DNA of 64,000 bases, taken from assembly GCA_016178505.1 (NCBI GenBank), contig JACOTG010000201.1, forward strand, positions 2,413-66,412. Reading direction: 5' to 3'. This document shows, in pieces, positions 4,926 through 41,653 of this stretch (position 1 is its first letter; every line of letters begins with the position of its first letter). The position numbers and the translations under genes are program-made. The stretch comes from Planctomycetota bacterium (GTDB lineage Bacteria; Planctomycetota; JACOTG01). Below the pieces are notes generated by a model, which was not told the origin of the DNA, did no database searches, and saw nothing but the letters and a program-made list of their open reading frames with translations.

Positions 4926-7900
4926 ATGATCGTCAACGGCCGGTATCGCGTCGCACGCGAGTTGGGGCACGGCTCGTATGCCAAGGTGTATCTGGCATCG
5001 GACAAAGAGCGACCCGGCGCGCACGTAGCTCTCAAGATCCTCGATCTCCCGGCGGACACCGCGGCGCCACGAACCGCCGACACGCGGGACGACGACGCGC
5101 GAACGGCATCACGCGACATCAAGAAGGAATTCCGTCTCCTCACACGCCTCCGCCATCCGAATCTGGAGGAGGTGTACGACTTCGGCGTGGACCGCGACAC
5201 CGGCCATCTCTTCTTCACTGCGGAATTCATCGAAGGGTCGGATTTCGTCACTGCAATCAGGACTGCCACGCCCGACGAGTTCGTGCGATTCGTCGTTCAG
5301 ATCCTCGAAGCTCTCGAGTTCATCCACGGTCGGGACGTCGTTCATGGCGATCTCAAGCCGGAAAACGTGCTTGTCTGTGCCGCGACGGACGACGGCTCCG
5401 TCGCACGGCAAGTCAAGCTCCTCGACTTCGGACTTGCGGGCGCGCGACGACGGCTTGCTTCGGGAGACGGCGGAGCACGTGGCACGCTCGGCTACGCGGC
5501 CCCGGAGGCTGTCATGGGCCGCGAGGTCGATGCACGCTCCGATCTCTACGCGCTCGGGATCCTCCTGTTTCAATCCATCACCGGCGCGTTACCGGCGACG
5601 AAGGCCGCACTCGGTTCGCGCGAGCATTGGAGCGAGATCGAGATGATCGTGCGCGAGAAGTCGACCCAGTTTCCCGAGCCGTTCGCGACGATGCTTCCGA
5701 GGCTCGTCGCCGAAGATCCCAACGCGCGTTGGACCTCTGCGCGCGAAGTTCTCGATCTCCTTCGTCGGGCGCAAGTCGGTTCCGTTCGTGATCCGGCGTC
5801 GTCTCGCATCCCTGCCGAAGTGCCGTTCGTCGGGCGTCGCGAGGAGCTCGCGATCCTCCGACGACTTCACGACGACGTTGCCGAACGGAAGCACGGCCCG
5901 CGAGTCGCGGTCGTCGTCGGCGAGCCGGGCTGCGGCAAGGGGCGACTTCTAGATGAGCTGAAGTACCACGGACAACTGCGCGAAGGGGACGTCGTGTCCG
6001 TGAACGCAGCTGGAGCCGGCGACTCGGCACTGGCCCTGATTCGCCAGATCGTGCGAAGGCTCTCCGAGTCACTCGACCCGTCGGATCTCGCAGCGCACGC
6101 CTCCCTTTTCGCGTCGCTCGGGCTTCGCGACGGGGAGGGTCGGGTCCTGACGCGACCGGTGTTGGGAGCGATGTTCGTTCGCTTTCTGTTGGCGCTCGCG
6201 GATCAACGGCCGCGCACGATCGTAGTGAAGAACGTCGGCGTCGCCGACGCAGCGAGTCGGGACTTGTTGGCTCACGCCGCGTGGCGGCTGTCAGTCGAAG
6301 GTGAGGCCGGTCGAGCGCCGTTGCTCCTCGTCTTCTCTCTCGATCCGGCGATCGCTACACCGGGATTCGAGGCGGACCTTCGCGCCGAGGGAAAAGCGGT
6401 AGAGATCCGCCTTTCGGGTTTCGACGTCACCGAAAGCCGTGCGTTTCTCCAGTCGTTTCTCGGGGGCGGCTCGGCAACGTCGGACCGAGCGGCGTTCGAG
6501 CGATTCGCCGACGAACTTCATGGCGAGTCGAAGGGAAACCCATTGTTCCTTCGTGACCTTCTGCGCTTCGTTGCGGACTCGGGGCGGCTCGCGTGGGACG
6601 CCGGGAACTGGCGGATCCAGCGGACGAAGGGTCGCGGACCGGCGCTTCCGCGTGCGGTATCGGCACTGCTCGAGGCGCGATATCGATCGCTCGACGCGCC
6701 GATGGCATCGGTGTTGGAGGCGTTGTCGGTGGCGAGGCGGCCCATTCATGCTTCGTTGATCGCGACATCGGTAGGCATTCTAGAGCCAGAGGCTCGAGCT
6801 CTCGTCGAGAAGCTTGTCGCGCTCGGAGTCGCTTCACGGGATCCCAAATCGGATCTGTTCTCGACAGGACACCCGCTCATGCAGGCGGTCGTCGAGCGCT
6901 CGCTGGCGGAAGAAAAACGCCAGGCGCTCCATGCTCGCCTCGGCGAAGCCATGTTGGCGACTTTGGGCGATCCGAATGGGCCGGGCGCAGGCGACGTTGC
7001 TCGGCATCTTCTCGCCAGCGCGACTCCGCGTCTGGGGATCAAAATCGCACTTCTCGCGGCGGACGAGGCATTGGAGCGTGGCGATCCGGGCGCGGCAGCC
7101 GACCTCTTTGCGCGCGTCGCCGAAATCGTTGAGTCGCCGGACGCGCGCCCGCCGAGAGGTAAGGGCGTCAATGGGACGCCGCCCGTCAGCGAGATTCACG
7201 TGCGCCACGGCACGGCGGCGTTGCGAGCTGGGCGATTCGAGGAAGCGGAATCTGCCGTTCGTGCCGCGATGCAGGGTGAACGCGACCCCGCGAGGCAAGC
7301 TGCGCTCACTCGCTCGCTCGGCGAAGCACGTCAGCGACGGGGAGATTTCGACGGTGCGCTCGCCGCGTACGAAGAAGCGCTTGCCATGGCGCGCAAGTCG
7401 GACGATCCAGCGACTGAGGCACTCGCACAGAACGCCGTCGGCTATTTGCACTCGCTTTGCGGACGGTACGAGCAGGCGCTTCGTGCGGCTCAGTCCGGGC
7501 TCGATCGACTTCGATCGGCGAGGACGCGCGAGCGCGCACTCTTGCTGAACTTGAAAGCCGTGTGTGAGCTTCGGCTCGGGCGCCACGAGGCGGCCATAGA
7601 ATCGGCGCGGGCAAGCCTATCGCTTTTCGAGGAGCTGTCGGACGAGTCGGGTCAGGCGTCGGCGCTCAACAACCTCGGCATCATCTACGACCGTCGTGGC
7701 GAGACGCCGCTCTCGCTGGAGGCGTATCGAAACGCCGCGCGCCTCTATGAGAAGGCCGGAAACGTCTCCGATCACGCGACGACGTTCAACAACATGGGAA
7801 CGGTTCTCCTTCTTCAGGGTGCGCTCGGTCCAGCTCGGGAACTCTTCGAGAAGAGCCTTGCGATGCGCGAAGAATTGGGAGATCGCTACGGCGTCGCCAC

Positions 7901-10292
7901 GTCCATCGCGAACCTCGGTACGGTGGCACGCGACGCCGGGCGCTTCGCGGACGCCCTCGATCGATACGAGCGAAGTCTCGCGCTGTTCGAACGCGTCGGA
8001 AGTCCGCGCGAGGAAACCATCGTTCGAAACCACCGAGCCGACCTCTTTCTGCAGCTTGGTGACGCCGACGCCGCGCGCTCCGAAATCGCCCGGGCTTCGT
8101 CGATTGCCAAGGCACACAAGCTTGCCACGGAAACCGCGCGATCGACCCTGTTCAGCGCGCGACTCGTGTTGCTGGAGCATGCCGCGACCGGAGATCCGGC
8201 GTGTCTCGCGAAGGCGCGCGAGGCGTTGAGCGCGGCCGATTCGATGTTGCGCGAGATCGGCGACGCACGGCTGCGATGCGAGGTTCTCCTCGATGTCGCT
8301 GACGTCGACTTCGAGCGCGGCGACGCGTCGTCCGCCAGAGAGTCGGCAAACGAAGCAAAACGCATCGCGGACTCGTTGCGCCACGTCGATCTATCCGCGC
8401 GAGCCGCCATGGCGTGCGCGCACGCGAGCGACGACTCCGATGCCCGGCTGAGGCTTCTCGTGTTTGCCGGAGAGCGTGCCGTCGAATCGAGCCGTCCGAT
8501 CGTTTGTGCGCGGGCGTCGTCGGCCCTTGCCGCAGAGTACGGCCGACGCGGAGACGCGAAGTCGGGGGGGGAGTGGCTCGTGCGCGCGGAAAAGGCGATG
8601 GCACAACTCCGCCTTGGCGTACCCGCTGCGCGGCGCGCCGCGTTCGATCGATCGCCCGTCGTCGCCGCCATCGATTTCGCCATGCGTGCGGCGCGGGAAG
8701 TCCCAGCGCCGGCGACCACGACCGCCGCTGGCGCAGACATGGAGCGCGCGGGCCGTGCGTCGATGATTGCGCTTCTGGAGATCAACAAGCGTCTGAACAC
8801 CGAAGGCGACTTCGATCGGCTCCTCGAGTTCATCATAGACTCCGCGATCCGGCTGACGAACGCCGAGCGAGGGTTTCTGGTGTTGACCGGAGACGACGGC
8901 TTGTCGTTCCGCGTGGCTCGCAATTTCAACATGCGCGACATCGATCGCCCCGAATTCGCCGTGAGCCGCTCGATCCTGAATGAGGTGATCGGAAGCGGTC
9001 GGCCGATGATCACCTCGGACGCGCAAGCGGACGCACGGCTTCGCGCATTCACCAGCGTCAGCGACTTGAAGCTGTCTTCGATCCTGTGCACGCCATTCAA
9101 GGCGAAGGATCGCGTGCTCGGGGCCATCTATGTCGACAACCGATTCGAACGAGGACTCTTCGGAGAGGTCGACCTCGAGCTGCTGAAGGCGTTCGCGGAC
9201 CAAGCCGCGATCGCGATCCAAAACTTGCGCCGTACGGCCGAGATCGAGGCGCTGAATCAACGACTCGCCGAGCGCGTGCAGATCCAAGCAACTGAAATCG
9301 AGGGGGCGCGAAAGGAGCGCGAACGGGAAAGCGAGGGGTTCCGACGGCGTTTTGCAGAGATCATCGGCCAAAGCCGGAAGATGCAAGACGTCTATCGACT
9401 CATCGACAAGCTCGCGCCGAGCGACATTCCCGTGTTGATTCTCGGCGAGAGCGGCACGGGAAAGGAACTCGTCGCGAAGGCGATCCACGCGGCGAGCGTG
9501 CGCAAGGACAAGATCTTCTTGTCCGAGAACTGCTCGTCGATTCCAACGACGCTGCTCGAAAGCGAGCTGTTCGGGTATGCAAGGGGCGCTTTCACGGGCG
9601 CCGTCGGCGACAAGAAAGGACTGTTCGAGCTCGCCCACGGCGGAACGATCTTCCTCGACGAAATCGGAGACATGCCGCCGGAGATGCAGATGAAGCTCCT
9701 GCGCGTGTTGCAAGAGCGTGAGTTTCGTCCGCTCGGCGCCAAGGACGTTCGGCACGTCGACGTCCGATTGGTCTCAGCGACCAATCGGGATCTCCCTCGC
9801 GCGGTCGGCGAAGGCTCGTTTCGCAGCGATCTCTACTATCGAATCAATGGAGCAACGATCGTGCTTCCGCCGCTTCGAGAGCGGGCCGAAGACATTCCCC
9901 TGCTGCTAGACCACTTTCTAGCGAAGTTCAGTCGCGAATCGGGCGTGCACCACGAGTTGTCTCCCGATGCGAGAAAGGTGCTTCTCTCGTGGCGTTGGCC
10001 GGGCAACGTTCGCGAACTGGAGAACGAGGTTCGGCGCGCGGTCGCGCTCGGCGATCGCGTCATTGACGTCAATCTGCTGTCGCCCGATATCCGCGAAGCG
10101 CGTGTAGCACTCGTGGATCCGGCGACGTGTGCCAGCCCGCCGATCAAATCGCTCGAGGAGATGGAAAAGCAAGCGATTGCGGTGGCACTCCAGCAATGCT
10201 CCGGCAACAAGCCGGAGGCGGCGCGTCGCCTCGGCATTTCGCTCGCCTCGATCTACGTGAAGATCAAGCGGTACGGGATTCAAACCAAATAG
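4926..10292 (+). CDS. multidomain signalling protein: Ser/Thr protein kinase, STAND (MalT/PknK-like) P-loop NTPase, TPR repeats, GAF, sigma-54 interaction (AAA+) domain and Fis-type HTH (1788 aa)
   Basis: Kinase motifs GHGSYAKVY, HGDLKPENVLV, DFGLA, GTLGYAAPE. P-loop GEPGCGKGRLL (nt ~5921) and GNPLFLRDLL. TPR-like repeats in aa ~750-1100. GAF (LGAIYVDNRF). Sigma-54 AAA+ motifs LILGESGTGKE (nt ~9431), ESELFGY, GAFTGA, ELENEVRRA. C-terminal HTH AARRLGISLASIYVKIKRYGI. Confidence 0.8.
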   Translation: MIVNGRYRVARELGHGSYAKVYLASDKERPGAHVALKILDLPADTAAPRTADTRDDDARTASRDIKKEFRLLTRLRHPNLEEVYDFGVDRDTGHLFFTAEFIEGSDFVTAIRTATPDEFVRFVVQILEALEFIHGRDVVHGDLKPENVLVCAATDDGSVARQVKLLDFGLAGARRRLASGDGGARGTLGYAAPEAVMGREVDARSDLYALGILLFQSITGALPATKAALGSREHWSEIEMIVREKSTQFPEPFATMLPRLVAEDPNARWTSAREVLDLLRRAQVGSVRDPASSRIPAEVPFVGRREELAILRRLHDDVAERKHGPRVAVVVGEPGCGKGRLLDELKYHGQLREGDVVSVNAAGAGDSALALIRQIVRRLSESLDPSDLAAHASLFASLGLRDGEGRVLTRPVLGAMFVRFLLALADQRPRTIVVKNVGVADAASRDLLAHAAWRLSVEGEAGRAPLLLVFSLDPAIATPGFEADLRAEGKAVEIRLSGFDVTESRAFLQSFLGGGSATSDRAAFERFADELHGESKGNPLFLRDLLRFVADSGRLAWDAGNWRIQRTKGRGPALPRAVSALLEARYRSLDAPMASVLEALSVARRPIHASLIATSVGILEPEARALVEKLVALGVASRDPKSDLFSTGHPLMQAVVERSLAEEKRQALHARLGEAMLATLGDPNGPGAGDVARHLLASATPRLGIKIALLAADEALERGDPGAAADLFARVAEIVESPDARPPRGKGVNGTPPVSEIHVRHGTAALRAGRFEEAESAVRAAMQGERDPARQAALTRSLGEARQRRGDFDGALAAYEEALAMARKSDDPATEALAQNAVGYLHSLCGRYEQALRAAQSGLDRLRSARTRERALLLNLKAVCELRLGRHEAAIESARASLSLFEELSDESGQASALNNLGIIYDRRGETPLSLEAYRNAARLYEKAGNVSDHATTFNNMGTVLLLQGALGPARELFEKSLAMREELGDRYGVATSIANLGTVARDAGRFADALDRYERSLALFERVGSPREETIVRNHRADLFLQLGDADAARSEIARASSIAKAHKLATETARSTLFSARLVLLEHAATGDPACLAKAREALSAADSMLREIGDARLRCEVLLDVADVDFERGDASSARESANEAKRIADSLRHVDLSARAAMACAHASDDSDARLRLLVFAGERAVESSRPIVCARASSALAAEYGRRGDAKSGGEWLVRAEKAMAQLRLGVPAARRAAFDRSPVVAAIDFAMRAAREVPAPATTTAAGADMERAGRASMIALLEINKRLNTEGDFDRLLEFIIDSAIRLTNAERGFLVLTGDDGLSFRVARNFNMRDIDRPEFAVSRSILNEVIGSGRPMITSDAQADARLRAFTSVSDLKLSSILCTPFKAKDRVLGAIYVDNRFERGLFGEVDLELLKAFADQAAIAIQNLRRTAEIEALNQRLAERVQIQATEIEGARKERERESEGFRRRFAEIIGQSRKMQDVYRLIDKLAPSDIPVLILGESGTGKELVAKAIHAASVRKDKIFLSENCSSIPTTLLESELFGYARGAFTGAVGDKKGLFELAHGGTIFLDEIGDMPPEMQMKLLRVLQEREFRPLGAKDVRHVDVRLVSATNRDLPRAVGEGSFRSDLYYRINGATIVLPPLRERAEDIPLLLDHFLAKFSRESGVHHELSPDARKVLLSWRWPGNVRELENEVRRAVALGDRVIDVNLLSPDIREARVALVDPATCASPPIKSLEEMEKQAIAVALQQCSGNKPEAARRLGISLASIYVKIKRYGIQTK

Positions 10293-10401: not shown

Positions 10402-12444
10402 ATGCCAGACATGGATCGAAGAACATTCTGCTTCAGCATCATCACTGTTAGCATGACAGCGTGGGCGAGTCTGTGCCGGGCTGATCAACCCTTGACAGGA
10501 GATCTGAACTTCGATCGCGTCATCGATGTGTCCGATTTCAGTCTGCTATATGGTTACATCCAGGGAAACAATGGGTTAAGTACGGATCAGCTCGCTGTCG
10601 CCGACATCAATCACGACGGTGTCGTGGATCTGATGGATGTCCGACGCGGGATGACTCGGTATGGCCGCCGTGTTCACTTCGAAGTTCCGCCGTTCGACCC
10701 GTTCGATCCAGCACGTCCAGTTCTCGACAAAGTCATGCCCGGATTCGGGCCAACCCGAACCCTGGTGACCCTGATCGGGTCCGGATTCGACCCGGTCGCA
10801 GCGAACAACGTGGTCCGGTTGGCGGGCGACGTCATGACCGTATTGTCCGCGTCGGCCACAGCGCTCACATTTCGAGTGCCATCGACTGCGCGGACCGGGA
10901 GCATCACGGTCGAGATCGGTGGGCTCGAAAGCTGCGGGGTCCCGTTCCTCGTGGGCGACGCGCCACCGACGACGAACCCCAACTCGGCGACGATCGGAAG
11001 CGAGGACGTCGGCCTCGTCCTTCCCAGCATTGCGGTTGCGCCGGGCTCTCGAATCGAGATTCCGGTGGAGTTCGATTCCGGCAATCATGATTTGGTCGGC
11101 GTCGATTTTCGCATCACGTTCGATCCGACCGTCCTCCATGCCGTCGAGATGGAGCCACTGCCAACGGTTCGGTTCGGCCAGCACTTCTATCGTTGCATCG
11201 ACAACACGACGGGCGTGATCGCGGGAGCGTTCGGATTCGGCCGGACGCCCGGTCGTGCCGTCCAGGTCGCAAATCTGGTGTTCGACGTCGTCGGGACGCC
11301 GGGTCGAATCGGGACCGTCGGCGGTCGCTTGAATGCCATGGCAGACATGGCGCAGCCAACGACTCTTGCCAGCGGTCCGAGATTCCTTTCGTCGAGTCAG
11401 AGCTTCGTTCTGGTTTCGGACGGGACTTTTTCGGAATCGTTGCGCCTTCTCAGCGAGGCAAGGGTTCACGCGACAGCCAACGCCTTGCCGGATGGACGCG
11501 TCCTCATCGCGGGAGGGGACTCGACGAATGGACAGATCCTCTCGAGCGCGACGATATTCGATCCATCGACGGGCGTCGTCACTCCTCATCCCACGGGAAT
11601 GGCCACCTCACGAACCGGTCATTCGGCGACGACGCTCAGCGACGGGCGGATCGTGATCGCGGGTGGCCGCAGCGTCAACGGACCGTTGTCGTCGATCGAG
11701 ATTTTCGAGCCGAGTTCGAACTCGTTCAGAACGGTTTCGCGACAGCTCTCGTCGGCCCGTTCGGATCATGCGGCGGTCCTCATGGCCGACGGGCGAATCG
11801 CTTGGATTGGCGGGCGGGGCGCGTCTGGCGTTCTTGCGAGCGTCGAGGTGTTCGACCCTGCGCTCGAAACGGTTACACGTCTTTCGCTGCCGATGAACGT
11901 TGCTCGATCCGGCCCGTCGGTCGCGCTCCTCTCGACGGGCAACCTCATCGTCACGGGGGGCGTCGGAACGGACGGGCAAGGGGTCCGTTTGGAGTTGACC
12001 GAGATCTACGATCCGATCGGTCTCTCGACGACTTACATCAACGAGAGTTCGGGTCATCGAGTCGGTGCTTTGCATCGGGCGACGCGCCTTCCGTCGGGGA
12101 CGGTAGTGCTCAGCGGAGAAGGTGAAGCCTCACGGTTCGACGTTTCGGATGGCGAATACGAATCGCTGGCAGTGCTCCGCGACTCACGCACCGGACACGT
12201 TGCGGTGCCGCTTCCCGATGGCGCTCTGTTCGTGAGCGCGGGATACGGAGTTGGAGTCCCGGTGCTCCGTACGAGTGAAATCCTCGGCCGAACCTCGGCT
12301 ACGGTCACGTCGCAAGGACCGTTGCTGTTCACCGCGCGAGCGGAGGCGACGGGAGTCGCGTTTCCGGATGGTCGCGTGGTCGTCGTCGGAGGCCTCGATT
12401 GGAACGGGAATCCGATCGCTTCGGTCGAGGTCATGCGACCCTAG
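10402..12444 (+). CDS. secreted protein with N-terminal dockerin-type Ca-binding repeats, an IPT/TIG domain and a Kelch-type beta-propeller
   Basis: Signal peptide. Dockerin-like DLNFDRVIDVSDFSLL...ADINHDGVVDLMDV. IPT-like PVLDKVMPGFGPTRTLVTLIGSGF. Six or more Kelch-like blades (DGRVLIAGG, DGRIVIAGG, DGRIAWIGG, GNLIVTGG, DGRVVVVGG). Confidence 0.7.
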   Translation: MPDMDRRTFCFSIITVSMTAWASLCRADQPLTGDLNFDRVIDVSDFSLLYGYIQGNNGLSTDQLAVADINHDGVVDLMDVRRGMTRYGRRVHFEVPPFDPFDPARPVLDKVMPGFGPTRTLVTLIGSGFDPVAANNVVRLAGDVMTVLSASATALTFRVPSTARTGSITVEIGGLESCGVPFLVGDAPPTTNPNSATIGSEDVGLVLPSIAVAPGSRIEIPVEFDSGNHDLVGVDFRITFDPTVLHAVEMEPLPTVRFGQHFYRCIDNTTGVIAGAFGFGRTPGRAVQVANLVFDVVGTPGRIGTVGGRLNAMADMAQPTTLASGPRFLSSSQSFVLVSDGTFSESLRLLSEARVHATANALPDGRVLIAGGDSTNGQILSSATIFDPSTGVVTPHPTGMATSRTGHSATTLSDGRIVIAGGRSVNGPLSSIEIFEPSSNSFRTVSRQLSSARSDHAAVLMADGRIAWIGGRGASGVLASVEVFDPALETVTRLSLPMNVARSGPSVALLSTGNLIVTGGVGTDGQGVRLELTEIYDPIGLSTTYINESSGHRVGALHRATRLPSGTVVLSGEGEASRFDVSDGEYESLAVLRDSRTGHVAVPLPDGALFVSAGYGVGVPVLRTSEILGRTSATVTSQGPLLFTARAEATGVAFPDGRVVVVGGLDWNGNPIASVEVMRP

Positions 12445-12654
12445 CGCGTTCCCGGCGAATCTGATATCGATCGTCGAGCGCGATGCCGGCGTTCGACGGT
12501 CCTCGGGTCCAATCCAACGGCTAAGCACCGACCTTTGCGCCCATCCGCCGCGGAAGCATTCACTCGGCGAAGGTCGGGCTCCGTTCGACGACGTGTGTCC
12601 ACTGCCGACGGTTCATCTCGATTCAATCCGCGGATTTGCCCCATTGGGGTTCGT

Positions 12655-12682
12655 TTGATTCCGTCGGGGCAGCGGGTATAGT
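12655..12682 (+). promoter_or_regulatory. sigma-70-like promoter TTGATT-N16-TATAGT upstream of the prepilin-type gene
   Basis: ttgatt 12655-12660, tatagt 12677-12682. RBS ggagg 8 nt before the ATG at 12730. Confidence 0.4.
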
Positions 12683-12729
12683 CTGTCGCATTTATTATCG
12701 TCACGCAGGGCAACGTGGAGGCGACTGCC

Positions 12730-13413
12730 ATGAGAATCCGCCGAGGAAACCCGGGTTTCACCATGGTCGAGCTGCTCGTCGTGATTGCGGTGATCGCGAC
12801 GATTTCGTCGATCATCTTGCCGAGTCTGCTCGGCGCACGGATGAGCGCCGCTGAGAGCGCGGCGATGGCGACCCTTCGCACCATCTGTTCAGCGGAGACG
12901 AGCTTCCACGAACGCCAGAGCGCCGACCGCGACGCTGATGGCGAGGGCGAGTACGGATTCCTCGCGGAAATGGCGGGCACCGTGATTCCGCCCCGGGCCG
13001 TGCAAGTCGTCAACCCGCCGATGCTCCCGAACTCCTTCCGCGTGATGAGCTCCGGGTACGTGAGCCGAACGGGCTATCTGTTCCGAGTGGTCCTCCCGGG
13101 CCTCGGCGGCGTTCCCGCCACCGAGGCGGCGACGGGAGGCGAGGACGCGGCGGCGCCGGTCGATTCGAACTTGGCCGAGGCGATCTGGGTCGCCTACTGC
13201 TGGCCGTCCGTCCGCGGCACGACGGGATTCCGAGCGTTCATGGTGAACCAGAGCGGTGCGATCATGCAGACCGACAACGTCGTCCAGGGCTACACCGGGT
13301 ACACGACGCCGATCACACCCGACGCCGCGTTTACGTCGCCGAACAACATCGCGTCGCCGGTCGCATTCAACGCTGCGGGCAACGACGGAGGAATCTGGAA
13401 GCCGGTGCGCTAG
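12730..13413 (+). CDS. prepilin-type N-terminal cleavage/methylation domain protein (type II secretion pseudopilin / type IV pilin-like)
   Basis: MRIRRGNPGFTMVELLVVIAVIATISSIILPSL is the classic prepilin peptidase motif (G|FT.E) followed by a hydrophobic helix. Start moved to the ATG with RBS (ORF track starts at GTG 12715). Confidence 0.65.
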   Translation: MRIRRGNPGFTMVELLVVIAVIATISSIILPSLLGARMSAAESAAMATLRTICSAETSFHERQSADRDADGEGEYGFLAEMAGTVIPPRAVQVVNPPMLPNSFRVMSSGYVSRTGYLFRVVLPGLGGVPATEAATGGEDAAAPVDSNLAEAIWVAYCWPSVRGTTGFRAFMVNQSGAIMQTDNVVQGYTGYTTPITPDAAFTSPNNIASPVAFNAAGNDGGIWKPVR

Positions 13414-13442
13414 ACTTTTCATCGCAGATTGCGAAACGCATA

Positions 13443-13473
13443 ATGCCGAGGTGAACCGCACCTCGGCATTTTT
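13443..13473 (+). terminator. rho-independent terminator after the prepilin-type gene
   Basis: atgccgaggtg / cacctcggcat 11-bp stem with aaccg loop, followed by tttt. Confidence 0.6.
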
Positions 13474-13474
13474 C

Positions 13475-14488
13475 GTGGCCGGAGTCGACGACCTCGTCGA
13501 TGTCATCGTGCGCGCAACGGTGCGCCACGAGTTCACGACCTACCTCATCGGCAGTCGGCTCCCGTCCTCGCTGGAGCCCGGAGCGGCGCGTGAGACCAAG
13601 CGGTTGCTCCACGCGGACATCTCGAGTGCGCTCGATCGGAAGTGGTTCGGACGACGAGTCGATTTCGACGATCCCGAAATTCGAATCCTCGTCGACGTCA
13701 CCCACCGAGAGGCGACGGTTTGGTCAGCGCCGGCGTGGCTGGTTGGTCGCTATCGGAAGTTCGACCGAGAGCTCCCGCAGAGTCGCTGGCCTTGCCGCCG
13801 TTGCCGCGGCTCCGGATGCGAGCGTTGCCTCGGCACCGGCAAGACCTACGTCGAGAGCGTCGAGGAAGCGATCGGCGGTACGGCGCTCCTGGCGTGCGAA
13901 GGTGTGGCGACTCGATTCCACGCCGTCGGCCGCGAGGACGTCGACGCTCGGATGCTGGGGACCGGCCGGCCGTTCGTCCTCGAGATCGTGGAGCCGCTGC
14001 GTCGAGCTGCGGATCTCGACCCCATCCAGCGAGTCGTGACCGAAACGTGGGCGGGGCGAGTCGGCGTCAGCGGACTTCGTTGGGGAAGCGCTCACGACGC
14101 CGAAGCCGTCAAGGCTCGGGAATGCGAGAAGAGCTATCGGGTCGTGATTGCCGCGCCGCGTCCGCTGTGTTCCGAGGATGCGGCTCGCATCGCGGATTTG
14201 ACGTCGGCCGAGCTGAAGCAGGAGACTCCGAATCGGGTTCTTCATCGACGGGGCGACGTGCGTCGACGACGACGAGTCTTTCGAGCGGAAGCACGTTCGA
14301 TCCGCGGAGGTCTCATCGAGGCGCGCTTCCGGGTCCAATCGGGAACCTACGTCAAGGAGCTGGTCTCGGGGGACTCGGGCCGAACGACCCCGAGTGTCTC
14401 GGCGCTTCTCGGCACGGCGTGCCGGGTTCTCTTACTCGACGTCGTCGCCGTTCACGATGACATCACCGCGCTCCCCCACGACTCATGA
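13475..14488 (+). CDS. tRNA pseudouridine synthase Pus10 family (archaeal/eukaryotic-type psi54/psi55 synthase) homologue; start uncertain
   Basis: Zn ribbon CRRCRGSGCERCLGTG. Signature AVGREDVDARMLGTGRPFVLEI (catalytic Asp region of Pus10) and YVKELVSGDSGRTTPSVSALLG. The ORF track N-terminus (from 13256) overlaps the pilin gene and terminator. The first in-frame GTG after the terminator is 13475; 13508 and 13520 are alternatives. Confidence 0.55.
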   Translation: MAGVDDLVDVIVRATVRHEFTTYLIGSRLPSSLEPGAARETKRLLHADISSALDRKWFGRRVDFDDPEIRILVDVTHREATVWSAPAWLVGRYRKFDRELPQSRWPCRRCRGSGCERCLGTGKTYVESVEEAIGGTALLACEGVATRFHAVGREDVDARMLGTGRPFVLEIVEPLRRAADLDPIQRVVTETWAGRVGVSGLRWGSAHDAEAVKARECEKSYRVVIAAPRPLCSEDAARIADLTSAELKQETPNRVLHRRGDVRRRRRVFRAEARSIRGGLIEARFRVQSGTYVKELVSGDSGRTTPSVSALLGTACRVLLLDVVAVHDDITALPHDS

Positions 14489-15033
14489 GCTGGTTTGGCT
14501 TTTTCCTCAACCTCGCTCTCGTCGCAGGGCTTGCGTTCGGCGTCTACTCTTGGTGGAAGTGGCGCCAAGCGGTCCGCGCGCGGCGATTTCGCCTCGATCC
14601 CGTGTCGTCGCCTCCCGGCCCGTGGGTTCGTGCGACGCGATGGTTGTTCGAGTCACTCATCGTGCTCGAAGTCCTGTTGGCGATCGCACACCTTGGCGGC
14701 GGCGTGAGCTCGTTCGCCGACGTCGTTTCCGGCGGAGCGACGAATCGCTTGCTCGTGGCGGTCGACCTCGTTTTCTTCGTTTTTCTGCTGCGATCGGACG
14801 TCGTGTCGAGCGCGGCTCTCTTGTGCGACGACGCGATCCGGATGGGGTGGGGCATTGCTGCGCGTTACGGCGAGGTGGAATCGGTCGAGTGGCTCGGCGC
14901 GGACCTTCTCGTCGTGCGGACGCATTCGGCACGCCTCGCTTTCTCGGTGCGCGAACGCGAGCGCGAGTCGGTTGCCCGATTCATCGGTGAGAAAACCGGA
15001 AAGGTCGTGGCCGTTCGGTCAGATCGCTCCTGA
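14485..15033 (+). CDS. hypothetical membrane protein (4 predicted TM helices), start overlaps the Pus10 stop (ATGA)
   Basis: ORF with hydrophobic segments LNLALVAGLAFGVYSWW, LIVLEVLLAIAHLGG, LLVAVDLVFFVFLL. ATGA overlap suggests co-translation with the upstream gene. Confidence 0.4.
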   Translation: MSWFGFFLNLALVAGLAFGVYSWWKWRQAVRARRFRLDPVSSPPGPWVRATRWLFESLIVLEVLLAIAHLGGGVSSFADVVSGGATNRLLVAVDLVFFVFLLRSDVVSSAALLCDDAIRMGWGIAARYGEVESVEWLGADLLVVRTHSARLAFSVRERERESVARFIGEKTGKVVAVRSDRS

Positions 15034-15541
15034 ACCGGGCGTTCTCGGGCGGGCGAACAGGACGAACACCGCCCATAACACGACCGGGAAGAACAGAATG
15101 CCCATCGTGCTGAAAAACGTGTGAAGGAAACGATAGATCGCCGCCGTTCCGGGAGCGATTGGGGCGAGTCCGAGCGCCGCGTAGTTGAATTGAAGCTCGA
15201 AAAAAACGGCGAGCACTTGAGTGAGCAGTAGCAGGGGAAACGCCAGCGCCGCGCGTACCGATGCGGAGAGAAGTGGTAGGTCGGTAGCCCCGAGAAAGAG
15301 CGCCAAGAACGTCGTCACGTCGAAATGTCCGGCCGTTCCCTTGAACGGAATCACCGACTCGCCGCCGCCCGCGGCGCGAAGGACGATCTGGATCCTGTCG
15401 CCGCGGACTCCGATGCTCTCGAGAAGTCCCTGTGGGTCGATCGGGGGGAGAACGAGGTTCGATGCGCTAGCGAGGAGCCAGTCCAGCAACGGCGAGGCCA
15501 ACCACCACACTCCAAACGCGACGGCGTACGCGAACGCGAAC
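15019..15541 (-). CDS. hypothetical polytopic membrane protein downstream of the exosortase-like gene (start undefined, possibly GTG/TTG or a frameshifted continuation)
   Basis: Hydrophobic, codon-plausible reading FAFAYAVAFGVWWLASPLL...ILFFPVVLWAVFVLFA. No ATG until near the C-terminus. The N-terminal Arg-rich part of the 275-aa ORF overlaps gene 15542..16090 in another frame and is rejected. Confidence 0.3.
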
Positions 15542-16090
15542 CTAGCGAGCCTCCGCCGCCAGGTCGCCGGTCGGGGGACGGAACGTCGTTCGGGCCCAGA
15601 GGGCCCAGACTCCGAAGACGAATGCGATGAAGAACGTTTGCCAGACATACACGTGTATGAACTCGAACGCGGAACTCTCGCGACTCGCCAGGTAGAATAG
15701 CGTGACGACCCGCACCAAGTTGAGCAGGAATATCGCCGGCAAGCCCACCAGGAGACCCAAGCCGCGAGAACGCCACGATGCCGGAAACGCGACGATGGCA
15801 GCAACGAACAGGATCCACTCGTACGTGACGTCGCATCCGTGCGCAATGGTGATCGCCGAGCCGCTCGAGGGAACCAGCGTCAATCCGTTTCGAACGACGG
15901 CTTCGCCGAGGACCTCGAGCACACAGGCCGCACTGGCAGCGGTCGCGCTCATGAACGGCTCGACGACCGCATCCTCGAGCGCGGGAACGAAGAGGAGCGC
16001 GAAGAGCACGATGACGATTCCGCCGAAGCGCAAGCAGAAGCGAAGTGGCGCGGAGCGCGTCCCAATCCGCCCGGATTCGGTCGAAGGCAT
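15542..16090 (-). CDS. putative minimal exosortase/archaeosortase-family membrane protein
   Basis: 5 TM helices. ITIAHGCDVTYEWILF (Cys in a TM helix, cf. the exosortase ACSG motif) followed about 45 aa later by FLLNLVRVVTLF (N-x-x-R motif, conserved Arg). Resemblance judged by eye only. Confidence 0.35.
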   Translation of the reverse strand: MPSTESGRIGTRSAPLRFCLRFGGIVIVLFALLFVPALEDAVVEPFMSATAASAACVLEVLGEAVVRNGLTLVPSSGSAITIAHGCDVTYEWILFVAAIVAFPASWRSRGLGLLVGLPAIFLLNLVRVVTLFYLASRESSAFEFIHVYVWQTFFIAFVFGVWALWARTTFRPPTGDLAAEAR

Positions 16091-16146
16091 GGGCGCAAGC
16101 TAGCGGTGCCGGATTCCAGCGTCAAGGCAAGCCGCGGCGAGATCGC

Positions 16147-17718
16147 GTGACGCGTCGCGTCCGGATCGTCGTCGTCCTTGCGTGCGTCGTGGTCTCTGGT
16201 GGAGTCCTGCGGCACTTCGATCAACACCCGATCGATCTCACGCGCTTTGCGCCCGCCGACGCGAGCGTCGCCCCACACGAGCCACCGCGCGGCATTGCGG
16301 GTGGAGCGCTCCTCGTCGTTTCACCTGAGGTCGTGGCACGCGCGTCGGGCGCGGACGCGAGCTTCGCGTGGCTCGACATCCTGGAGAACGAGTACGGCGC
16401 CACACGTTGGATTCGTGCGGACGAATTGTCCCGCGACGCCGGCGCCGTGACCCTGGCCGTCGTGTCGCGAAGTGCAGCGTCGGACATCGACGCCCGCGCG
16501 CTCGATCGGCTCGCGACACGCGCACTCGTGATCGTCATCGACGTCGACGGATCGGACGCAGCGCGCCCAGCGCATGCCGGGTCCGCGCCGATCATCGCCG
16601 TCGACGACCTGGCAAACCGCGTCGCGCGTCGCCGCCAGGGTCTCCTCGGATCGCGACAGACGATCGACAAGAGACTGGGGCGCTACCCGCAGGTGCGAGA
16701 ACCCGAGGACCTCCTCGAATCGCCAGATTCGCTCGACCGAGAGTTTCCCGACGCCGACCGACTCGTCGCCGACCTCGCCGCTCGAATCGACACGCTCGTG
16801 GCGATTCCGCGCCTAGCGATGCACCCGGCAGGATTCGCGGGAACGTTTCTGATGACGCACGACGAGGACGAACAAGGCGGCGCTTCGACTCTTTCTCTCC
16901 TGCGACGAGAAGCCGAGTGGGGCGGCCGTTCGACGGTGTTCCTCGTTCCGTCGGGCCGACTCTGGGAGTCCTGGTCCGATGCCGAGATCGCCGAGGCCAG
17001 ACGGCTCGGCGCGGATCTCGAGCTCCATTGGAATCGCTTCGCGATGCCCGCGGGCGTGTGGAAGGTCGAGCCGTACAAGACCGTGTACCGCCTCTCGACG
17101 CAGCGCGAGACGTTGCGCCGGCGCGGGCTCGAAGCCACGATGAACCGCACGCACTACCTCCACCTCGGATCGGATCTCTCGGAGTTCTTTCGCACGCTCG
17201 ACGCGGCCGGCATCGAAGTGGACGCGACCTTCGGTCCGAATCGCGCCGGGCGTGGCCACCTGTTCGGAACGGCGCGGCCATTCCATCCGATCGATCGGAC
17301 CGGCCTGCCGTCGCCCGTGATGGAGGTTCCGTTCCAGACGCAGGAAGATTGGGGCGGCGTCGACGAAGCGTTCTTGGCTCGGCTCTTTCGTCAGAGCGCC
17401 GACGTGGATCACTAGACTCTCGCGGCGATCATTCACCCCCACCTCATCGTGCGCGACGATGCCGGCGCCCGCCTTCACCGGCGTCTCTTCGAGCTCGCGC
17501 GCGAGACGCAGCATTGGGTCGCAAACCTCGGGGACTATCTTGCGTTTCGCCGCGCGCGACTCGCGACCGTCATCCGGTTCACCCGTGCGCCGGACGGTCG
17601 CGTTGTCGCTCTCGACGTCGACGTTCCGGATGGCGTGCCACCGATGGCTCTTCGGGTTCCGAAACGCGCGCCTCTGACGCTGCTCGCCGGCCCGCACCAC
17701 GTAACGCTCGAGGACTGA
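16147..17718 (+). pseudogene. membrane-anchored polysaccharide-deacetylase-like / hypothetical protein interrupted by a single in-frame TAG at 17413-17415 (pseudogene, split gene or sequencing error)
   Basis: ORFs 16045..17415 and 17449..17718 are in the same frame with no other stop between them. Sequence continuity across the stop (...SADVDH*TLAAIIHPHLIVRDDAGARLHRRLFELARE...). N-terminal TM anchor VRIVVVLACVVVSGGVL. Likely start GTG ~16147. Confidence 0.4.
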
Positions 17719-35432: not shown

Positions 35433-36530
35433 GTGGCCGACCTCGCCGTCGTCGTCGTCAACTACAACTCCGCGGACTTCTTGCGGGGATGCGTGGAGTC
35501 TCTTGGTCAAGCGGGCGGCGGATCTCTCGAGATCGTGATCGTAGACAACGGCTCGGAGCCGGACGACCGCGCCGCCGCGCACGCGCTCGCGGGACCTCAC
35601 GTGCACGTCATCGACGCGCCGGACAACCCGGGGTACGGCGGCGGGCTCAACCGCGGGATTGCGCTCACGACGGCGCCGTTTCTCGCGCTGATGAATCCCG
35701 ATGTTCGCGTCTGCCCGGGCGCGTTCGACGAGCTGCGTCGTTGGGTCGAGGCCGACGCGCTGATCGGCGCGGCGGGTCCGCGCACGTTCATGGACGAGGG
35801 TCTTCTGATCCAGCACCCGATGAATCGTCTCCTCACGCCGGGGCGATTCCGAGCGGCCGCGCGGGCGCTCGACGATCCTTCGACCGCTCGTCGATTCGTC
35901 GGAGGCTACACGCGCTATGCACTGCGGTACTGGGCGTCGGTCTTTCCGAGGCCGATCGAAATGCTCTCCGGCGCGTGCCTCTTCACCCGGCGCGACGTCA
36001 TCGAGAAGGTCGGCGTCTTCGACGAATCGTTTCCGCTCTACTTCGAGGACGCGGATTGGTGCGCTCGAGTCCGCGAGTTCGGTTACCGCCTCGAGTACGT
36101 TCCGGCGGCGCGCATCCTCCATTTCCACAACATCAGCGGCTCGCGATCACCCGAGGTCGCGGCGAAGCGCTACGCGGTCGCGGAAGCGCGATTCGCTACA
36201 AAGCACTTCGGCCGCCTCGGGCAGTGGCGATACCGTCGTGAGTCGGCACGTCGAGCCGAGCGACTCGCCGCCGGCCCACCCTTGTCGCCCTGGCCGCTGA
36301 TCGACCTCGGGGCCCTCGGCGAGCCGCCGGCGTTTCCAGCACGCGGGCCCGCGCTCGCGGAGGTCGCGGGAACGCCTCTCTTCGACTACCCGGTTGCGAG
36401 CTTCGTCGGCGCCGAACCGTTCAGCATCCCCGACGACGTGTGGGCACGAATGGGAAGCGGGCCGTGGTTCGTGCGCGTGGTGCTCCTTGACGCGACGACG
36501 GTGGTCCGCGCGTGGACGTTTAGAAAATGA
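35433..36530 (+). CDS. glycosyltransferase family 2
   Basis: LAVVVVNYNSADFLRGCVESL...VIVDNGS...DNPGYGGGLNRG (GT2 A-type motifs). GTG start. Confidence 0.65.
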   Translation: MADLAVVVVNYNSADFLRGCVESLGQAGGGSLEIVIVDNGSEPDDRAAAHALAGPHVHVIDAPDNPGYGGGLNRGIALTTAPFLALMNPDVRVCPGAFDELRRWVEADALIGAAGPRTFMDEGLLIQHPMNRLLTPGRFRAAARALDDPSTARRFVGGYTRYALRYWASVFPRPIEMLSGACLFTRRDVIEKVGVFDESFPLYFEDADWCARVREFGYRLEYVPAARILHFHNISGSRSPEVAAKRYAVAEARFATKHFGRLGQWRYRRESARRAERLAAGPPLSPWPLIDLGALGEPPAFPARGPALAEVAGTPLFDYPVASFVGAEPFSIPDDVWARMGSGPWFVRVVLLDATTVVRAWTFRK

Positions 36531-37393
36531 GCAGCATGCAGCGGAAGATCGCGGATCCGACGACGCTCGGCGAGTGCGTGCGGACGATGTTTCCGGAATC
36601 GTCGGGTCGGACGCGCAAGCAGTTCCTGGAAGCCGGGCGAGTGCGGGTGAACGGCGTCACGCAAAAGATCGCCCGCACGCCCCTCGCGGCCGGTGACGTC
36701 GTCGAGGTAGGCGATGGTGAGGTGTCGACGAAACTGCCGCGCGGCGTCGAGATCATCCACGAAGACGACGACCTCCTGGTGATCGTGAAGGGGCCGAACC
36801 TCCTCACCGTCGCCAGCGATCGCGTGCGCGACCGCACCGTTTATGCGTTCCTGACGGACTACGTCCAGAAGCGCGCGCCCGAGGCACGGGTCTTCATCGT
36901 TCATCGCCTCGACCGCCTCGCCTCTGGGCTGCTCGTGTTCGCGAAGACTCCGGAGATGAAGATCGCGCTCCAAGCGCAGTTCGAGGCGCACACGGCCGAG
37001 CGCGTCTACGTGGCCGTCGTCGAAGGCCGCCCCGAACGGCGAGAAGGGGTGATCGACAAGCGGCTGGCTGAAGATCCGACGTCGGGGAAAATGCGCGCAG
37101 CGCGCGCGACCGACGTCGAAGCGCGCGACGCCATCACCCGCTGGCGCGTGCTGCGCGAAGGCACACGTACGACCACCCTCGAAGTGCGCCTCGAGACGGG
37201 ACGCAAGAATCAGATCCGTGTCCACCTCGCGTCGGTCGGCCACCCGATCGTCGGCGACGAAACGTACGGCAGCCGCGTCGATCCCATTGGGCGCCTCGCG
37301 CTCCACGCACGGACGCTGGCGTTCGATCATCCGCGAACCGGCGCGAGACTCCGCTTCGAGTCTCCGCCGCCGAGCGCGTTCCAGAAGATCTGA
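36527..37393 (+). CDS. RluA-family 23S rRNA/tRNA pseudouridine synthase (RluC/RluD-like, S4 domain N-terminal)
   Basis: Catalytic motif HRLDRLASGLLVFAKT. S4-like RVRVNG. ATGA overlap with the upstream GT2 stop. Confidence 0.8.
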   Translation: MSSMQRKIADPTTLGECVRTMFPESSGRTRKQFLEAGRVRVNGVTQKIARTPLAAGDVVEVGDGEVSTKLPRGVEIIHEDDDLLVIVKGPNLLTVASDRVRDRTVYAFLTDYVQKRAPEARVFIVHRLDRLASGLLVFAKTPEMKIALQAQFEAHTAERVYVAVVEGRPERREGVIDKRLAEDPTSGKMRAARATDVEARDAITRWRVLREGTRTTTLEVRLETGRKNQIRVHLASVGHPIVGDETYGSRVDPIGRLALHARTLAFDHPRTGARLRFESPPPSAFQKI

Positions 37394-39645: not shown

Positions 39646-41274
39646 TTACATGCCCATGCCGCCGCCGTGCGGCATCGCGGGCATCTTTTCCTTCTCTTCC
39701 GGGATCTCGCTGATGAGAGCCTCGGTGGTGAGGAGGAGCGACGCGATTGACGCGGCGTTCTGGAGCGCCGAGCGCGTGACCTTCGTCGGATCGATGATGC
39801 CTTCCTTGACGAGGTCGAGGTATTGTCCGGTTCGCGCGTCGAAGCCCTCGTTGGCGTTCTTGGCCTCCTTGACGCGCTGGACGACGATCGCGCCGTCCAC
39901 GCCCGCATTGACCGCGATCTGGCGCAGGGGCGCCTCGACCGCGCGGCGAACGATGTCGACGCCGACCTTCTCGTCGCCGGTGAGCTTCAGCTTGTCGAGC
40001 GCCTTGCTCGCGCGAATGAGCGCGACGCCGCCGCCCGGCAGGATGCCTTCCTCGACGGCCGCGCGGGTCGCATGGAGCGCGTCTTCGACGCGCGCCTTCT
40101 TCTCCTTCATTTCGGTCTCGGTCGCTGCGCCGACGTTGATCTGCGCGACTCCGCCCGAGAGCTTCGCCAGGCGCTCCTGGAACTTCTCGCGATCGTAGTC
40201 GGACGTCGTGGCGTCGATCTCGCGCTTGATCTGGGCGATGCGGCCCTGGATGGCCGCGGTCTCGCCGGCGCCCTCGACGATCGTGGTGTTCTCTTTGTCG
40301 ACGACGATCTTCTTCGCTTGGCCGAGGTCCTCGATCTTCACGTTGGCGAGCTCGATCCCGAGATCCTCGAAGATCGCCTTGCCGCCCGTGCGGACGGCGA
40401 TGTCCTCGAGCATGGCCTTGCGGCGATCGCCGAACCCGGGAGCCTTCACGGCGCAGCACTCGAACGTGCCGCGCAGGCGGTTCACGACGAGCGTCGCGAG
40501 CGCTTCGCCTTCGACGTCTTCGGCGATGATGACGAGCGGCTTGCCCGCGCGGTGGATCTTCTCGAGCAGCGGCACGAGGTCCTTCACCGACGAGATCTTC
40601 TTCTCGTGGATGAGGACGTACGGCTTGTCGAGAACGGCCTCCATCGAGTCGTTCTTGTTCACGAAGTAGGGCGAGATGTAGCCCTTGTCGAACTGCATGC
40701 CCTCGACCCACTCGACGTTGGTCTCGAGCCCCTTTCCTTCTTCGACGGTGATGACGCCGTCCTTGCCGACCTTTTCCATGGCGTCGGCGATCTGCTTGCC
40801 GATCTCCTCGTCGTTGTTCGAGGCGATGGCGCCGACCTGCGCGATCTCCTTCTTGCCCTTCACTTCCTTGCTCATCGACTTCAGCTCGTCGATGATCGCC
40901 CCGACCGCCGCCTCGATGCCGCGCTTCAGCGAGATCGGATTCGCGCCTGCGGTGACGTTGCGCAATCCTTCCTCGAAGATGGCCTCTGCAAGAACGGTGG
41001 CCGTCGTCGTGCCGTCGCCGGCGATTTCCGACGTCTTGCTGGCGACTTCCTTCACCATCTGCGCGCCCATGTTCTCGTAGGCGTCCTGCAGCTCGATCTC
41101 CTTCGCGACGGTGACGCCGTCCTTGGTGACGGTCGGCGACCCGAAGCTCTTCTCGAGGATGACGTTTCGGCCGCGCGGGCCGAGCGTCACCTTCACGGCG
41201 CGGCTGAGCTTGCGCACGCCGCTGCGAATGGCTTCACGCGCTTCCTGGTCGAAGGCGATTTTCTTGGCGCTCAT
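39646..41274 (-). CDS. groL: chaperonin GroEL (60-kDa)
   Basis: [20 protein letters not shown]...GGGMGM C-terminus. Full-length unmistakable GroEL. Confidence 0.95.
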
Positions 41275-41347
41275 GGTTTCTCTATCTCCTGGTTTCTCGT
41301 TGATTTCTCATGTGGCGGACTCGGCGCCGAGCCGGCGTCGAAGTGCG

Positions 41348-41653
41348 CTACTGGACGATGGCGAGGATGTCCTCTTCGGCCATGATCAAATAGCCTTCGC
41401 CGCCATGGCGAACTTCGGTGCCCGCGTACGAGTTGAAGATGACGCGGTCGTTCACCTTCACTTGGAACTCGACGCGCCGGCCGTTGTCGAGGACTCGACC
41501 TTCGCCGACGGCGACGACCTTGCCCTCGCGCGGCTTTTCCTTCGCCGTGTCGGGCAGGACGATTCCGCCCTTCGTGCGTTCCTCGGCCTCGAGGCGCTTG
41601 ATGAGGACCTTGTCGTTCAACGGTCGGATCTTCTCCGTCGCCATCTCGATCAC
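41348..41653 (-). CDS. groS: co-chaperonin GroES (10-kDa)
   Basis: [26 protein letters not shown]...[13 protein letters not shown]. Alternative start at ATG 41644 (MATEKIRPL). Confidence 0.9.

Follow-up and report, generated by a model that had tools for sequence, protein, structure and literature searches.

Pus10 is the tRNA pseudouridine(54/55) synthase of archaea and eukaryotes; bacteria normally use TruB, and the Pyrococcus furiosus enzyme, PfuPus10, complements Escherichia coli truB (PMC1616971). The protein carries CXXC Zn binding motifs in its N-terminal region (PMC1616971), and mutagenesis of the Methanocaldococcus jannaschii enzyme (MjPus10) has delineated its functional elements: a GREDXD site made up of Arg273, the catalytic Asp275 and Asp277, together with a His at -6 relative to the Asp; Tyr339, Ile412/Lys413, Leu440 and the thumb-loop pair His376/Arg377; and two forefinger segments, ffl1 (Cys227–Arg231) and ffl2 (Cys238–Val249), which are required for pseudouridine (Psi) 54, but not for Psi55 (PMC3753934). 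The original 2006 paper (PMC1616971), as well as reviews of 2021 (PMC7912444) and 2025 (PMC12710931), assign Pus10 to archaea and eukaryotes and deny its presence in bacteria, and our full-text searches found no report of a bacterial or planctomycete Pus10. Here, we describe a pus10 gene in a 64,000-nt stretch (hereafter, the window) of contig JACOTG010000201.1 from a Planctomycetota bacterium. We consider it likely, from sequence comparison and structure prediction, that the product is an active RNA pseudouridine synthase of the Pus10 family, that it descends from archaea, and that the gene has long been resident in a deep-branching lineage of this phylum.

Family assignment and active site

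The gene and the elements of its product are listed below; residue numbers throughout are counted from GTG 13475.

13451..14488, + strand: Pus10 coding sequence, 345 aa from the probable start (337 aa from the alternative GTG 13475)
13496..13696, + strand: THUMP-like N-terminal domain (Pfam Pus10_THUMP_arc), residues 8-74, with no preceding zinc ribbon
13793..13828, + strand: Cys cluster C107-x2-C110-x4-C115-x2-C118 (CRRCRGSGCERC) in the forefinger-loop region, placed by alignment
13919..13945, + strand: active-site segment H149-AV-G-R153-E-D155-V-D157 (GREDXD), with Asp155 catalytic, Arg at -2 and His at -6
14243..14248, + strand: thumb-loop His257-Arg258, equivalent by alignment to MjPus10 His376/Arg377

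The product is a true Pus10-family pseudouridine synthase, and not TruA, TruB or TruD. It matches NCBIfam TIGR01213, the equivalog model for tRNA pseudouridine(54/55) synthase Pus10 (COG1258), with 306.5 bits (E 2.6e-91; cut-off 200), and Pfam Pus10_C (PF21238) with 206.8 bits (E 4.6e-61; cut-off 27); the Pfam and NCBIfam profile searches gave no match to TruA, TruB or TruD, and the HXGXLD motif of TruB was not found in the open reading frame (ORF). A sequence search of the PDB returned a sole match, human PUS10 (2v9k; E 2e-27). The same entry heads the Foldseek comparison of the PDB with an AlphaFold2 model of the protein, which was built on an alignment of 14 short-form sequences and has a mean predicted local distance difference test score (pLDDT) of 92.3: human PUS10 is matched with an E value of 1.3e-28 and a TM-score of 0.81 over the whole query, and the runners-up are TruA (E 1e-8; TM-score 0.45), followed by Cbf5 and TruB (approximately 1e-6 to 1e-7; TM-score 0.36 for TruB). 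An earlier note on this DNA, made from the letters alone, had proposed a Pus10 in a bacterial contig, and this proposal is borne out by the profile scores, which exceed both curated cut-offs, by the first rank of 2v9k and by the presence of GroEL, GroES and a sigma-54-dependent activator in the same window. The two outcomes that the note had named as fatal, a best match to TruD or TruA and a chance occurrence of the motifs within another fold, were not found, the latter being excluded by the E values for TIGR01213, Pus10_C and 2v9k.

The likeness to human PUS10 extends over the whole length of the fold and, by sequence, over the catalytic domain; nonetheless, the two proteins are only 23% identical, and the human enzyme lacks the CxxCxGxGCxxC forefinger insertion and has a longer N-terminal domain. 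With TruB, the window protein has in common the pseudouridine-synthase core fold and, probably, the product, Psi55, but it belongs to a different family, having neither the HXGXLD motif nor a PUA domain.

The hallmark motifs from which the assignment was first made are all present in frame when the ORF is translated from GTG 13475, namely WPCRRCRGSGCERCLGTGK at nt 13793-13828, GREDVDARMLGTGRPF from nt 13928, and YVKELVSGDSGRTTPS. Alignment with Methanocaldococcus and other archaea shows that the mapped MjPus10 residues are all kept, as H149, R153, D155, D157, Y221, H257/R258, V293/K294 and L321; within these, the G152-R153-E-D155-V-D157 stretch (GREDXD, with the second Asp at +2) is invariant. 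Indeed, 52 columns of the alignment do not vary over 18 archaeal and bacterial sequences, and every catalytic residue is among them. The forefinger segments are likewise kept in full in the Methanocaldococcus alignment, ffl1 corresponding to C107-R111 and ffl2 to C118-V129. The window protein therefore has the same GREDXD site, forefinger Cys cluster and thumb His-Arg pair as Pus10 from M. jannaschii and P. furiosus, as well as the Tyr, Ile/Val-Lys and Leu elements and the order of a THUMP-like followed by a catalytic domain.

The CxxC-x4-CxxC motif had been read in the earlier note as the Pus10 zinc ribbon. The motif is present, but it is the forefinger-loop cluster, and the canonical N-terminal ribbon is absent. 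None of its four Cys residues varies among the aligned sequences from archaea and bacteria (18/18), and human PUS10 has a gap in place of this stretch. The CxxCxGxGCxxCxGxG pattern of the window protein has what we take to be a resemblance to DnaJ-type zinc knuckles and, by this analogy, the cluster is likely to bind zinc.

Short architecture, relatives and origin

The N-terminal part of the protein is reduced. The match to TIGR01213 begins at model position 71, such that the first ~70 positions of the model, which contain the N-terminal CXXC...CXXC ribbon, have no counterpart; in the alignment, long archaeal forms have ~70–110 extra N-terminal residues bearing two CXXC pairs, and the window protein has no Cys pair before residue 107. 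Nor is there room for a ribbon further upstream, because a pilin-like gene ends at 13413. The match of residues 8-74 to Pus10_THUMP_arc is below the cut-off (21.3 bits, E 3e-4; cut-off 28), and a Pus10 fold composed of a THUMP-containing N-domain and a catalytic domain is supported by the confident model and its whole-query match to 2v9k. When a set of 1.84 billion proteins, each representing a 50%-identity cluster, was surveyed, 2390 Pus10 clusters were obtained at E <= 1e-3; within the 150 nearest of these, 36 lack the N-terminal extension, and ~30 of the 36 also lack any CxxC before the THUMP part, whereas 89 of 92 long forms have two N-terminal CxxC motifs. Since the loss recurs in ~30 of the 150 nearest clusters, we treat it as an architectural variant rather than a reason for excluding the protein from Pus10.

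The host of the gene is a bacterium. The window encodes the following operon:

39646-41653, - strand: groES-groEL operon (GroEL, 855 bits)

Two NCBI metagenome-assembled genomes named "Planctomycetes bacterium" encode a GroEL that matches the one in the window at 100% identity, and all named relatives of this protein, at 74–80% identity, are from Planctomycetota. A second assembly contains the same locus: the NCBI nr protein P0001, which is labelled as Pus10 from a Planctomycetes bacterium, has 345 aa, is 99% identical to the window protein and is encoded on a 107-kb contig (L001) of GCA_016200105.1; over 21,038 positions, this contig and the window show 11 differences. Some other bacterial-labelled Pus10 matches do lie on short contigs (4.2 kb for Bipolaricaulia and 6.8 kb for Pseudomonadota), as would be expected if an archaeal contig or a chimeric assembly had been misplaced in a bacterial bin; here, such an artefact is hardly credible, given that pus10 is contiguous with groEL/groES, the sigma-54 activator gene, an XrtH gene and a prepilin-type gene in both the 64-kb window and the 107-kb NCBI contig, that the same arrangement has been assembled independently in several samples and that composition is uniform.

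Most of the best-scoring matches among species genomes are archaeal. We scanned the GTDB species genomes with the short-form alignment as query; amongst the best 80 matches, which do not include the window's own lineage, 78 are archaeal, with identities of 33–48%, and come from Thermoplasmata, Methanomassiliicoccales, Bathyarchaeia and methanogens, among others. The window protein differs from archaeal Pus10 in its modest identity, in its bacterial host and in lacking the zinc ribbon that is present there. The two bacterial-labelled entries in this set, from Bipolaricaulota and Fraserbacteria, are long forms with the ribbon, unlike the short form of the window. The Fraserbacteria protein has 416 aa, and its gene, on a 116-kb contig, adjoins tsaD and hpt (locus L026 5749-9664); a 371-aa ORF beside it looks, by eye from the translation, like an archaeal-type fructose-1,6-bisphosphate aldolase/phosphatase.

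In a neighbour-joining tree of 196 sequences (100 bootstraps), the window protein groups with P0001-P0003 with a support of 100, and these are joined by P0004, P0032 and P0081 with a support of 65; orthologues that are 42–64% identical to the window protein occur, in the same pilin–Pus10 order, on five other contigs. All of the true short forms, together with a few archaeal long forms, constitute a loose group (support 31), and deeper nodes have supports of 20–40. Two other bacterial short-form groups associate weakly with the window clade (bootstrap 20–31), and neither has a pilin-like or TM182 neighbour (TM182 being the membrane protein encoded after the window pus10; see below): in L091, the gene adjoins those for a MurC-like ligase (280 bits, a little short of the 335 required for MurC) and PyrD/PyrK, and in L088, that for an extracytoplasmic function (ECF) sigma factor. 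P0092 and P0115 are found in the classical archaeal Pus10-L21e-RpoF-DUF655-KsgA cluster; the Pus10-L21e-RpoF-DUF655 arrangement (L089 and L090) is not the setting of the window gene, which follows the pilin-like gene instead. A metagenome scan with the window protein, based on matches to the pattern REDVDARM, listed 80 loci, among which no relative exceeds 43% identity.

Pus10 occurs in nearly all archaea but only sporadically in bacteria, a pattern that is consistent with its transfer from the former to the latter. The earlier note had raised horizontal acquisition from archaea, and this much of it agrees with the distribution, but the neighbour-joining tree names no donor lineage. The acquisition was not recent, because the GC content of the gene (0.663) and that of its third codon positions (GC3, 0.75) are as in the neighbouring genes, and because a clade of related bacteria shares both the gene and its upstream neighbour. 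As a separate observation, the relative at 60% identity (L003) encodes archaeal-type topoisomerase VI subunits A and B (12434-15417, - strand), 3.4 kb 3' of its Pus10 block; no homologue of these was found in the window.

Start codon, expression and neighbouring genes

The features that flank the coding sequence are as follows:

12730..13413, + strand: pilin-like gene; ATG 12730 gives 227 aa, and GTG 12715 opens the ORF (Pfam N_methyl, TIGR02532)
13416..13444, + strand: sigma-70-like promoter match TTTTCA-17 nt-CATAAT, the -10 box ending 6 nt before GTG 13451
13442..13470, + strand: terminator hairpin of the pilin-like gene, a 12-bp stem followed by UUUUUC, the 5' arm of which holds GTG 13451
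14485..15033, + strand: TM182, a 182-aa orphan membrane protein, the ATG of which overlaps the Pus10 stop (ATGA 14485-14488; TGA 14486-14488)

The Pus10 frame is open from 13256 to the TGA at 14486-14488, and the part 5' of 13413 overlaps the pilin-like gene. Although GTG 13475 had been taken as the start, it is probably GTG 13451 that is used, because the NCBI protein P0001 begins there and comparison with the orthologues requires it. In L003, moreover, the GTG of an ATAAT-N6-GTG arrangement is the one in-frame start codon to be seen close to the conserved first helix (the downstream codons having been judged by eye).

As the earlier note had described, the start abuts a terminator and has no visible ribosome-binding site: the hairpin at 13442-13470 is real, and no Shine–Dalgarno sequence is visible before the window gene. 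RNAfold gives the hairpin a free energy of -23.6 kcal/mol (z -5.83), a stability that none of 200 shuffles equalled; it is GC-rich, lies after the pilin-like stop and is followed by a U-run, as is characteristic of an intrinsic terminator, although a simple consensus scanner did not list it. The promoter match at 13416-13444 is one of 2 in 2.7 kb, where 0.2 would be expected, and the spacing of its -10 box is kept in orthologues: CATAAT-N6-GTG in the window corresponds to CATAAT-GACGCC-GTG in L003 and GATAAT-GCCGGG-GTG in L093. A -10 box ~6–8 nt before the start, conserved in orthologues and unaccompanied by a Shine–Dalgarno sequence, is the signature of a leaderless gene, and it suggests that the pus10 mRNA is leaderless and begins at approximately 13451; the lack of a ribosome-binding site is better explained in this way, because a start at 13451 would stand at the beginning of such a transcript. 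The strong intrinsic terminator would close the pilin-like transcript, and transcription from the CATAAT box, 6 nt before GTG 13451, would then produce the leaderless message. Lacking the 5' arm of the hairpin, this message would not terminate, and RNA polymerase could read through into pus10, after which TM182 may be translated by termination–reinitiation at the ATGA.

The pilin-like protein bears the prepilin N-terminal methylation motif GFTMVELLVVIAVIA, and a GC3 of 0.85 suggests that its gene is highly expressed. All of the clade loci that were read (L001, L003, L004/L005, L086, L087 and L093) have this gene directly 5' of pus10 and in the same orientation, usually with a terminator-like hairpin in the gap between the two genes. 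The orthologues have 226–228 aa and are 48–72% identical, in step with the divergence of Pus10; they are found upstream of pus10 at the following positions:

L003 7254-7937: pilin-like orthologue
L004 7145-7831: pilin-like orthologue
L086 6755-7435: pilin-like orthologue
L087 5017-5700: pilin-like orthologue
L093 3-281: pilin-like orthologue

The remaining flanks divide the clade. In subgroup A (the window, L003 and L093), pus10 is followed by the gene for the 182-aa membrane protein and then by one for a protein of ~450–550 aa; in subgroup B, an iron-dependent repressor, ferritin and FeoAB are encoded upstream, and a HEAT-repeat gene lies downstream. A block of radical-SAM and ABC-transporter genes is separated from pus10 by 3 kb in L086 and by 15 kb in the window and, because this block is shared regionally, the genomes are related closely enough for the pilin–Pus10 adjacency to have been inherited. 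We therefore take the linkage as conserved synteny of uncertain meaning, and not as evidence of a common function.

TM182 had been described as a four-transmembrane protein of 182 aa that overlaps the Pus10 stop. Its size and the ATGA overlap are as stated, but only three hydrophobic segments are clear, and four are obtained only if the third, which can be split, is counted as two; a small soluble domain follows at the C-terminus. The AlphaFold2 model, which is of low confidence (pLDDT 59), has three transmembrane helices and a C-terminal beta-beta-beta-alpha domain. No family in Pfam or NCBIfam matches the protein, and only 2 word-seeded matches were obtained in 5.8 billion proteins. The gene lies directly 3' of pus10 in all three subgroup A lineages, including L093, in which the XrtH pair described below is missing; in the window, L001 and L093, the two reading frames overlap at an ATGA, and in L003 they are 36 nt apart, with a GGAG in the spacer. 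No TM182 gene adjoins pus10 in subgroup B or the remaining bacterial groups, and the 80 listed metagenomic loci include no homologue of either it or the pilin-like protein. A membrane protein as the partner of a tRNA enzyme, which the earlier note had found unexpected, is thus conserved in the closest subgroup, but it is missing beyond it and is no general partner; TM182 appears to be a lineage-specific, co-transcribed passenger.

Downstream of TM182, the window encodes the exosortase XrtH (120 bits) with an adjacent 160-aa membrane protein (15019-16090, - strand), and then the conserved ~450–550-aa protein (16045-17415, + strand), which has no family match. The convergent XrtH pair lies between the genes for TM182 and the latter protein in the window and L003, is missing in L093 and, judged by this comparison, behaves as an insertion or deletion inside a conserved block. 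TM182 as a part of an XrtH module is ruled out, as L093 keeps Pus10-TM182 without XrtH.

Independently of this clade, a gene related to type IV pili also adjoins pus10 in a lysine-rich group of short forms (P0013/P0091), where, in two divergent contigs, a Peptidase_A24 gene lies directly 3' of pus10 and is followed by those for DUF92 and RtcA:

L092 6571-8495: lysine-rich short-form Pus10 locus, with Peptidase_A24 (prepilin-peptidase family) downstream

It is conceivable that Pus10 acts with the pilin-like protein, TM182 or both in an envelope module, for example through tethering to the membrane or through control of pilin expression. The pilin-like gene accompanies pus10 throughout the clade loci examined despite their differing flanks, TM182 follows it in subgroup A even where the XrtH pair is missing, and Peptidase_A24 recurs in the separate short-form group. 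Nevertheless, we regard such a module as improbable: the pilin-like gene and pus10 have a terminator between them, the radical-SAM/ABC synteny extends beyond the pair, so that the adjacency may simply be inherited, TM182 is confined to subgroup A amongst the bacterial groups, the score for pilin or TM182 homologues in the further listed metagenomic loci is 0/80, and no known biochemical logic joins the proteins.

Elsewhere in the window, the region 5' of the pilin-like gene encodes a Ser/Thr kinase of 1789 aa that contains AAA, TPR and GAF domains (4926-10292, + strand) and, just upstream of the pilin-like gene, a 680-aa secreted protein with dockerin, cohesin and TIG domains and a Kelch propeller (10402-12444, + strand). 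A 289-aa ORF (36527-37393, + strand) has the HRLD active-site motif of the RluA family, making it a second pseudouridine synthase in the window.

Function and meaning of a bacterial Pus10

From the conserved residues, the enzyme would hold the T-arm of the tRNA between the Cys-rich forefinger loop and the His-Arg thumb loop; U55, and probably also U54, would be flipped out and isomerized by way of the catalytic Asp155 of the GREDVD motif, with either Arg153 or His149 filling the position vacated by the base.

Several points weigh against a functional and long-established Pus10 of this kind, or against the expression proposed for it. The genome may still encode TruB, in which case a Psi55 role would be redundant, and loss of the N-terminal zinc ribbon might alter substrate binding. 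The -35 element of the promoter is weak and is not conserved in L003 or L093, and the subgroup B orthologues start with a Shine–Dalgarno sequence, 170 nt from the pilin-like gene. Furthermore, pus10 (window 13451-14488; L001 10001-11038) accounts for 3 of the 11 differences between the two near-identical contigs, where ~0.5 would be expected from its length, and all three are nonsynonymous and fall in the N-terminal THUMP-like part, which we read as a faint hint of relaxed constraint there. These substitutions, taken with the N-terminal truncation, could also mark the gene as a decaying relic, the inactive remnant of an old transfer. We think this very improbable: the frame is intact, the invariant columns include every catalytic residue, the structural model is confident, the gene is conserved over the clade at 42–64% identity, and the short architecture recurs amongst the nearest clusters.

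An active enzyme might nonetheless have a changed task, TruB being kept for Psi55 and the short Pus10 modifying U54 only, or else rRNA, tmRNA or mRNA. The customary use of TruB by bacteria (PMC1616971), the loss of the ribbon beside the THUMP domain and the RluA-type synthase of the window, which shows an ordinary bacterial complement of such enzymes, would all accord with this, as would the human precedent, in which PUS10 occurs alongside TRUB1 and serves chiefly to form Psi54, in selected tRNAs (PMC7912444). We hold such neofunctionalization to be unlikely, as all of the MjPus10 residues for both Psi54 and Psi55 are kept, among them those of the forefinger loop and the His-Arg pair of the thumb, and no sequence feature indicates another substrate.

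If the gene does specify a Pus10 with the ancestral activity, as we favour, then the lineage, and perhaps other bacteria with Pus10, could have replaced TruB by the ribbon-less enzyme and acquired an archaeal-style Psi54-Psi55 T-loop, a proposal that we make only tentatively and would not expect to hold on present indications. Within the 64-kb window, no credible ORF has the HXGXLD motif of TruB; an Rfam scan of the window gave no match and, hence, no tRNA genes to inspect. The linkage to the pilin-like gene and the membrane orphan might, in addition, reflect a further lineage-specific role.

The window locus and several other bacterial contexts render the statement that Pus10 is absent from bacteria, as made from 2006 to 2025, out of date. 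The surprise is a modest and phyletic one: bacterial Pus10 proteins are already labelled as such by genome pipelines, the enzyme family is well understood, and this is not a new kind of system. Should truB prove to be absent from the genome, the locus would represent a case in which an archaeal enzyme has displaced a non-orthologous tRNA enzyme that is near-universal in bacteria; should it be present, the question would become the purpose of a second T-loop pseudouridine synthase, as it is for human PUS10. The compact, ribbon-less Pus10 constitutes a natural experiment on the contribution that the ribbon makes to tRNA recognition.

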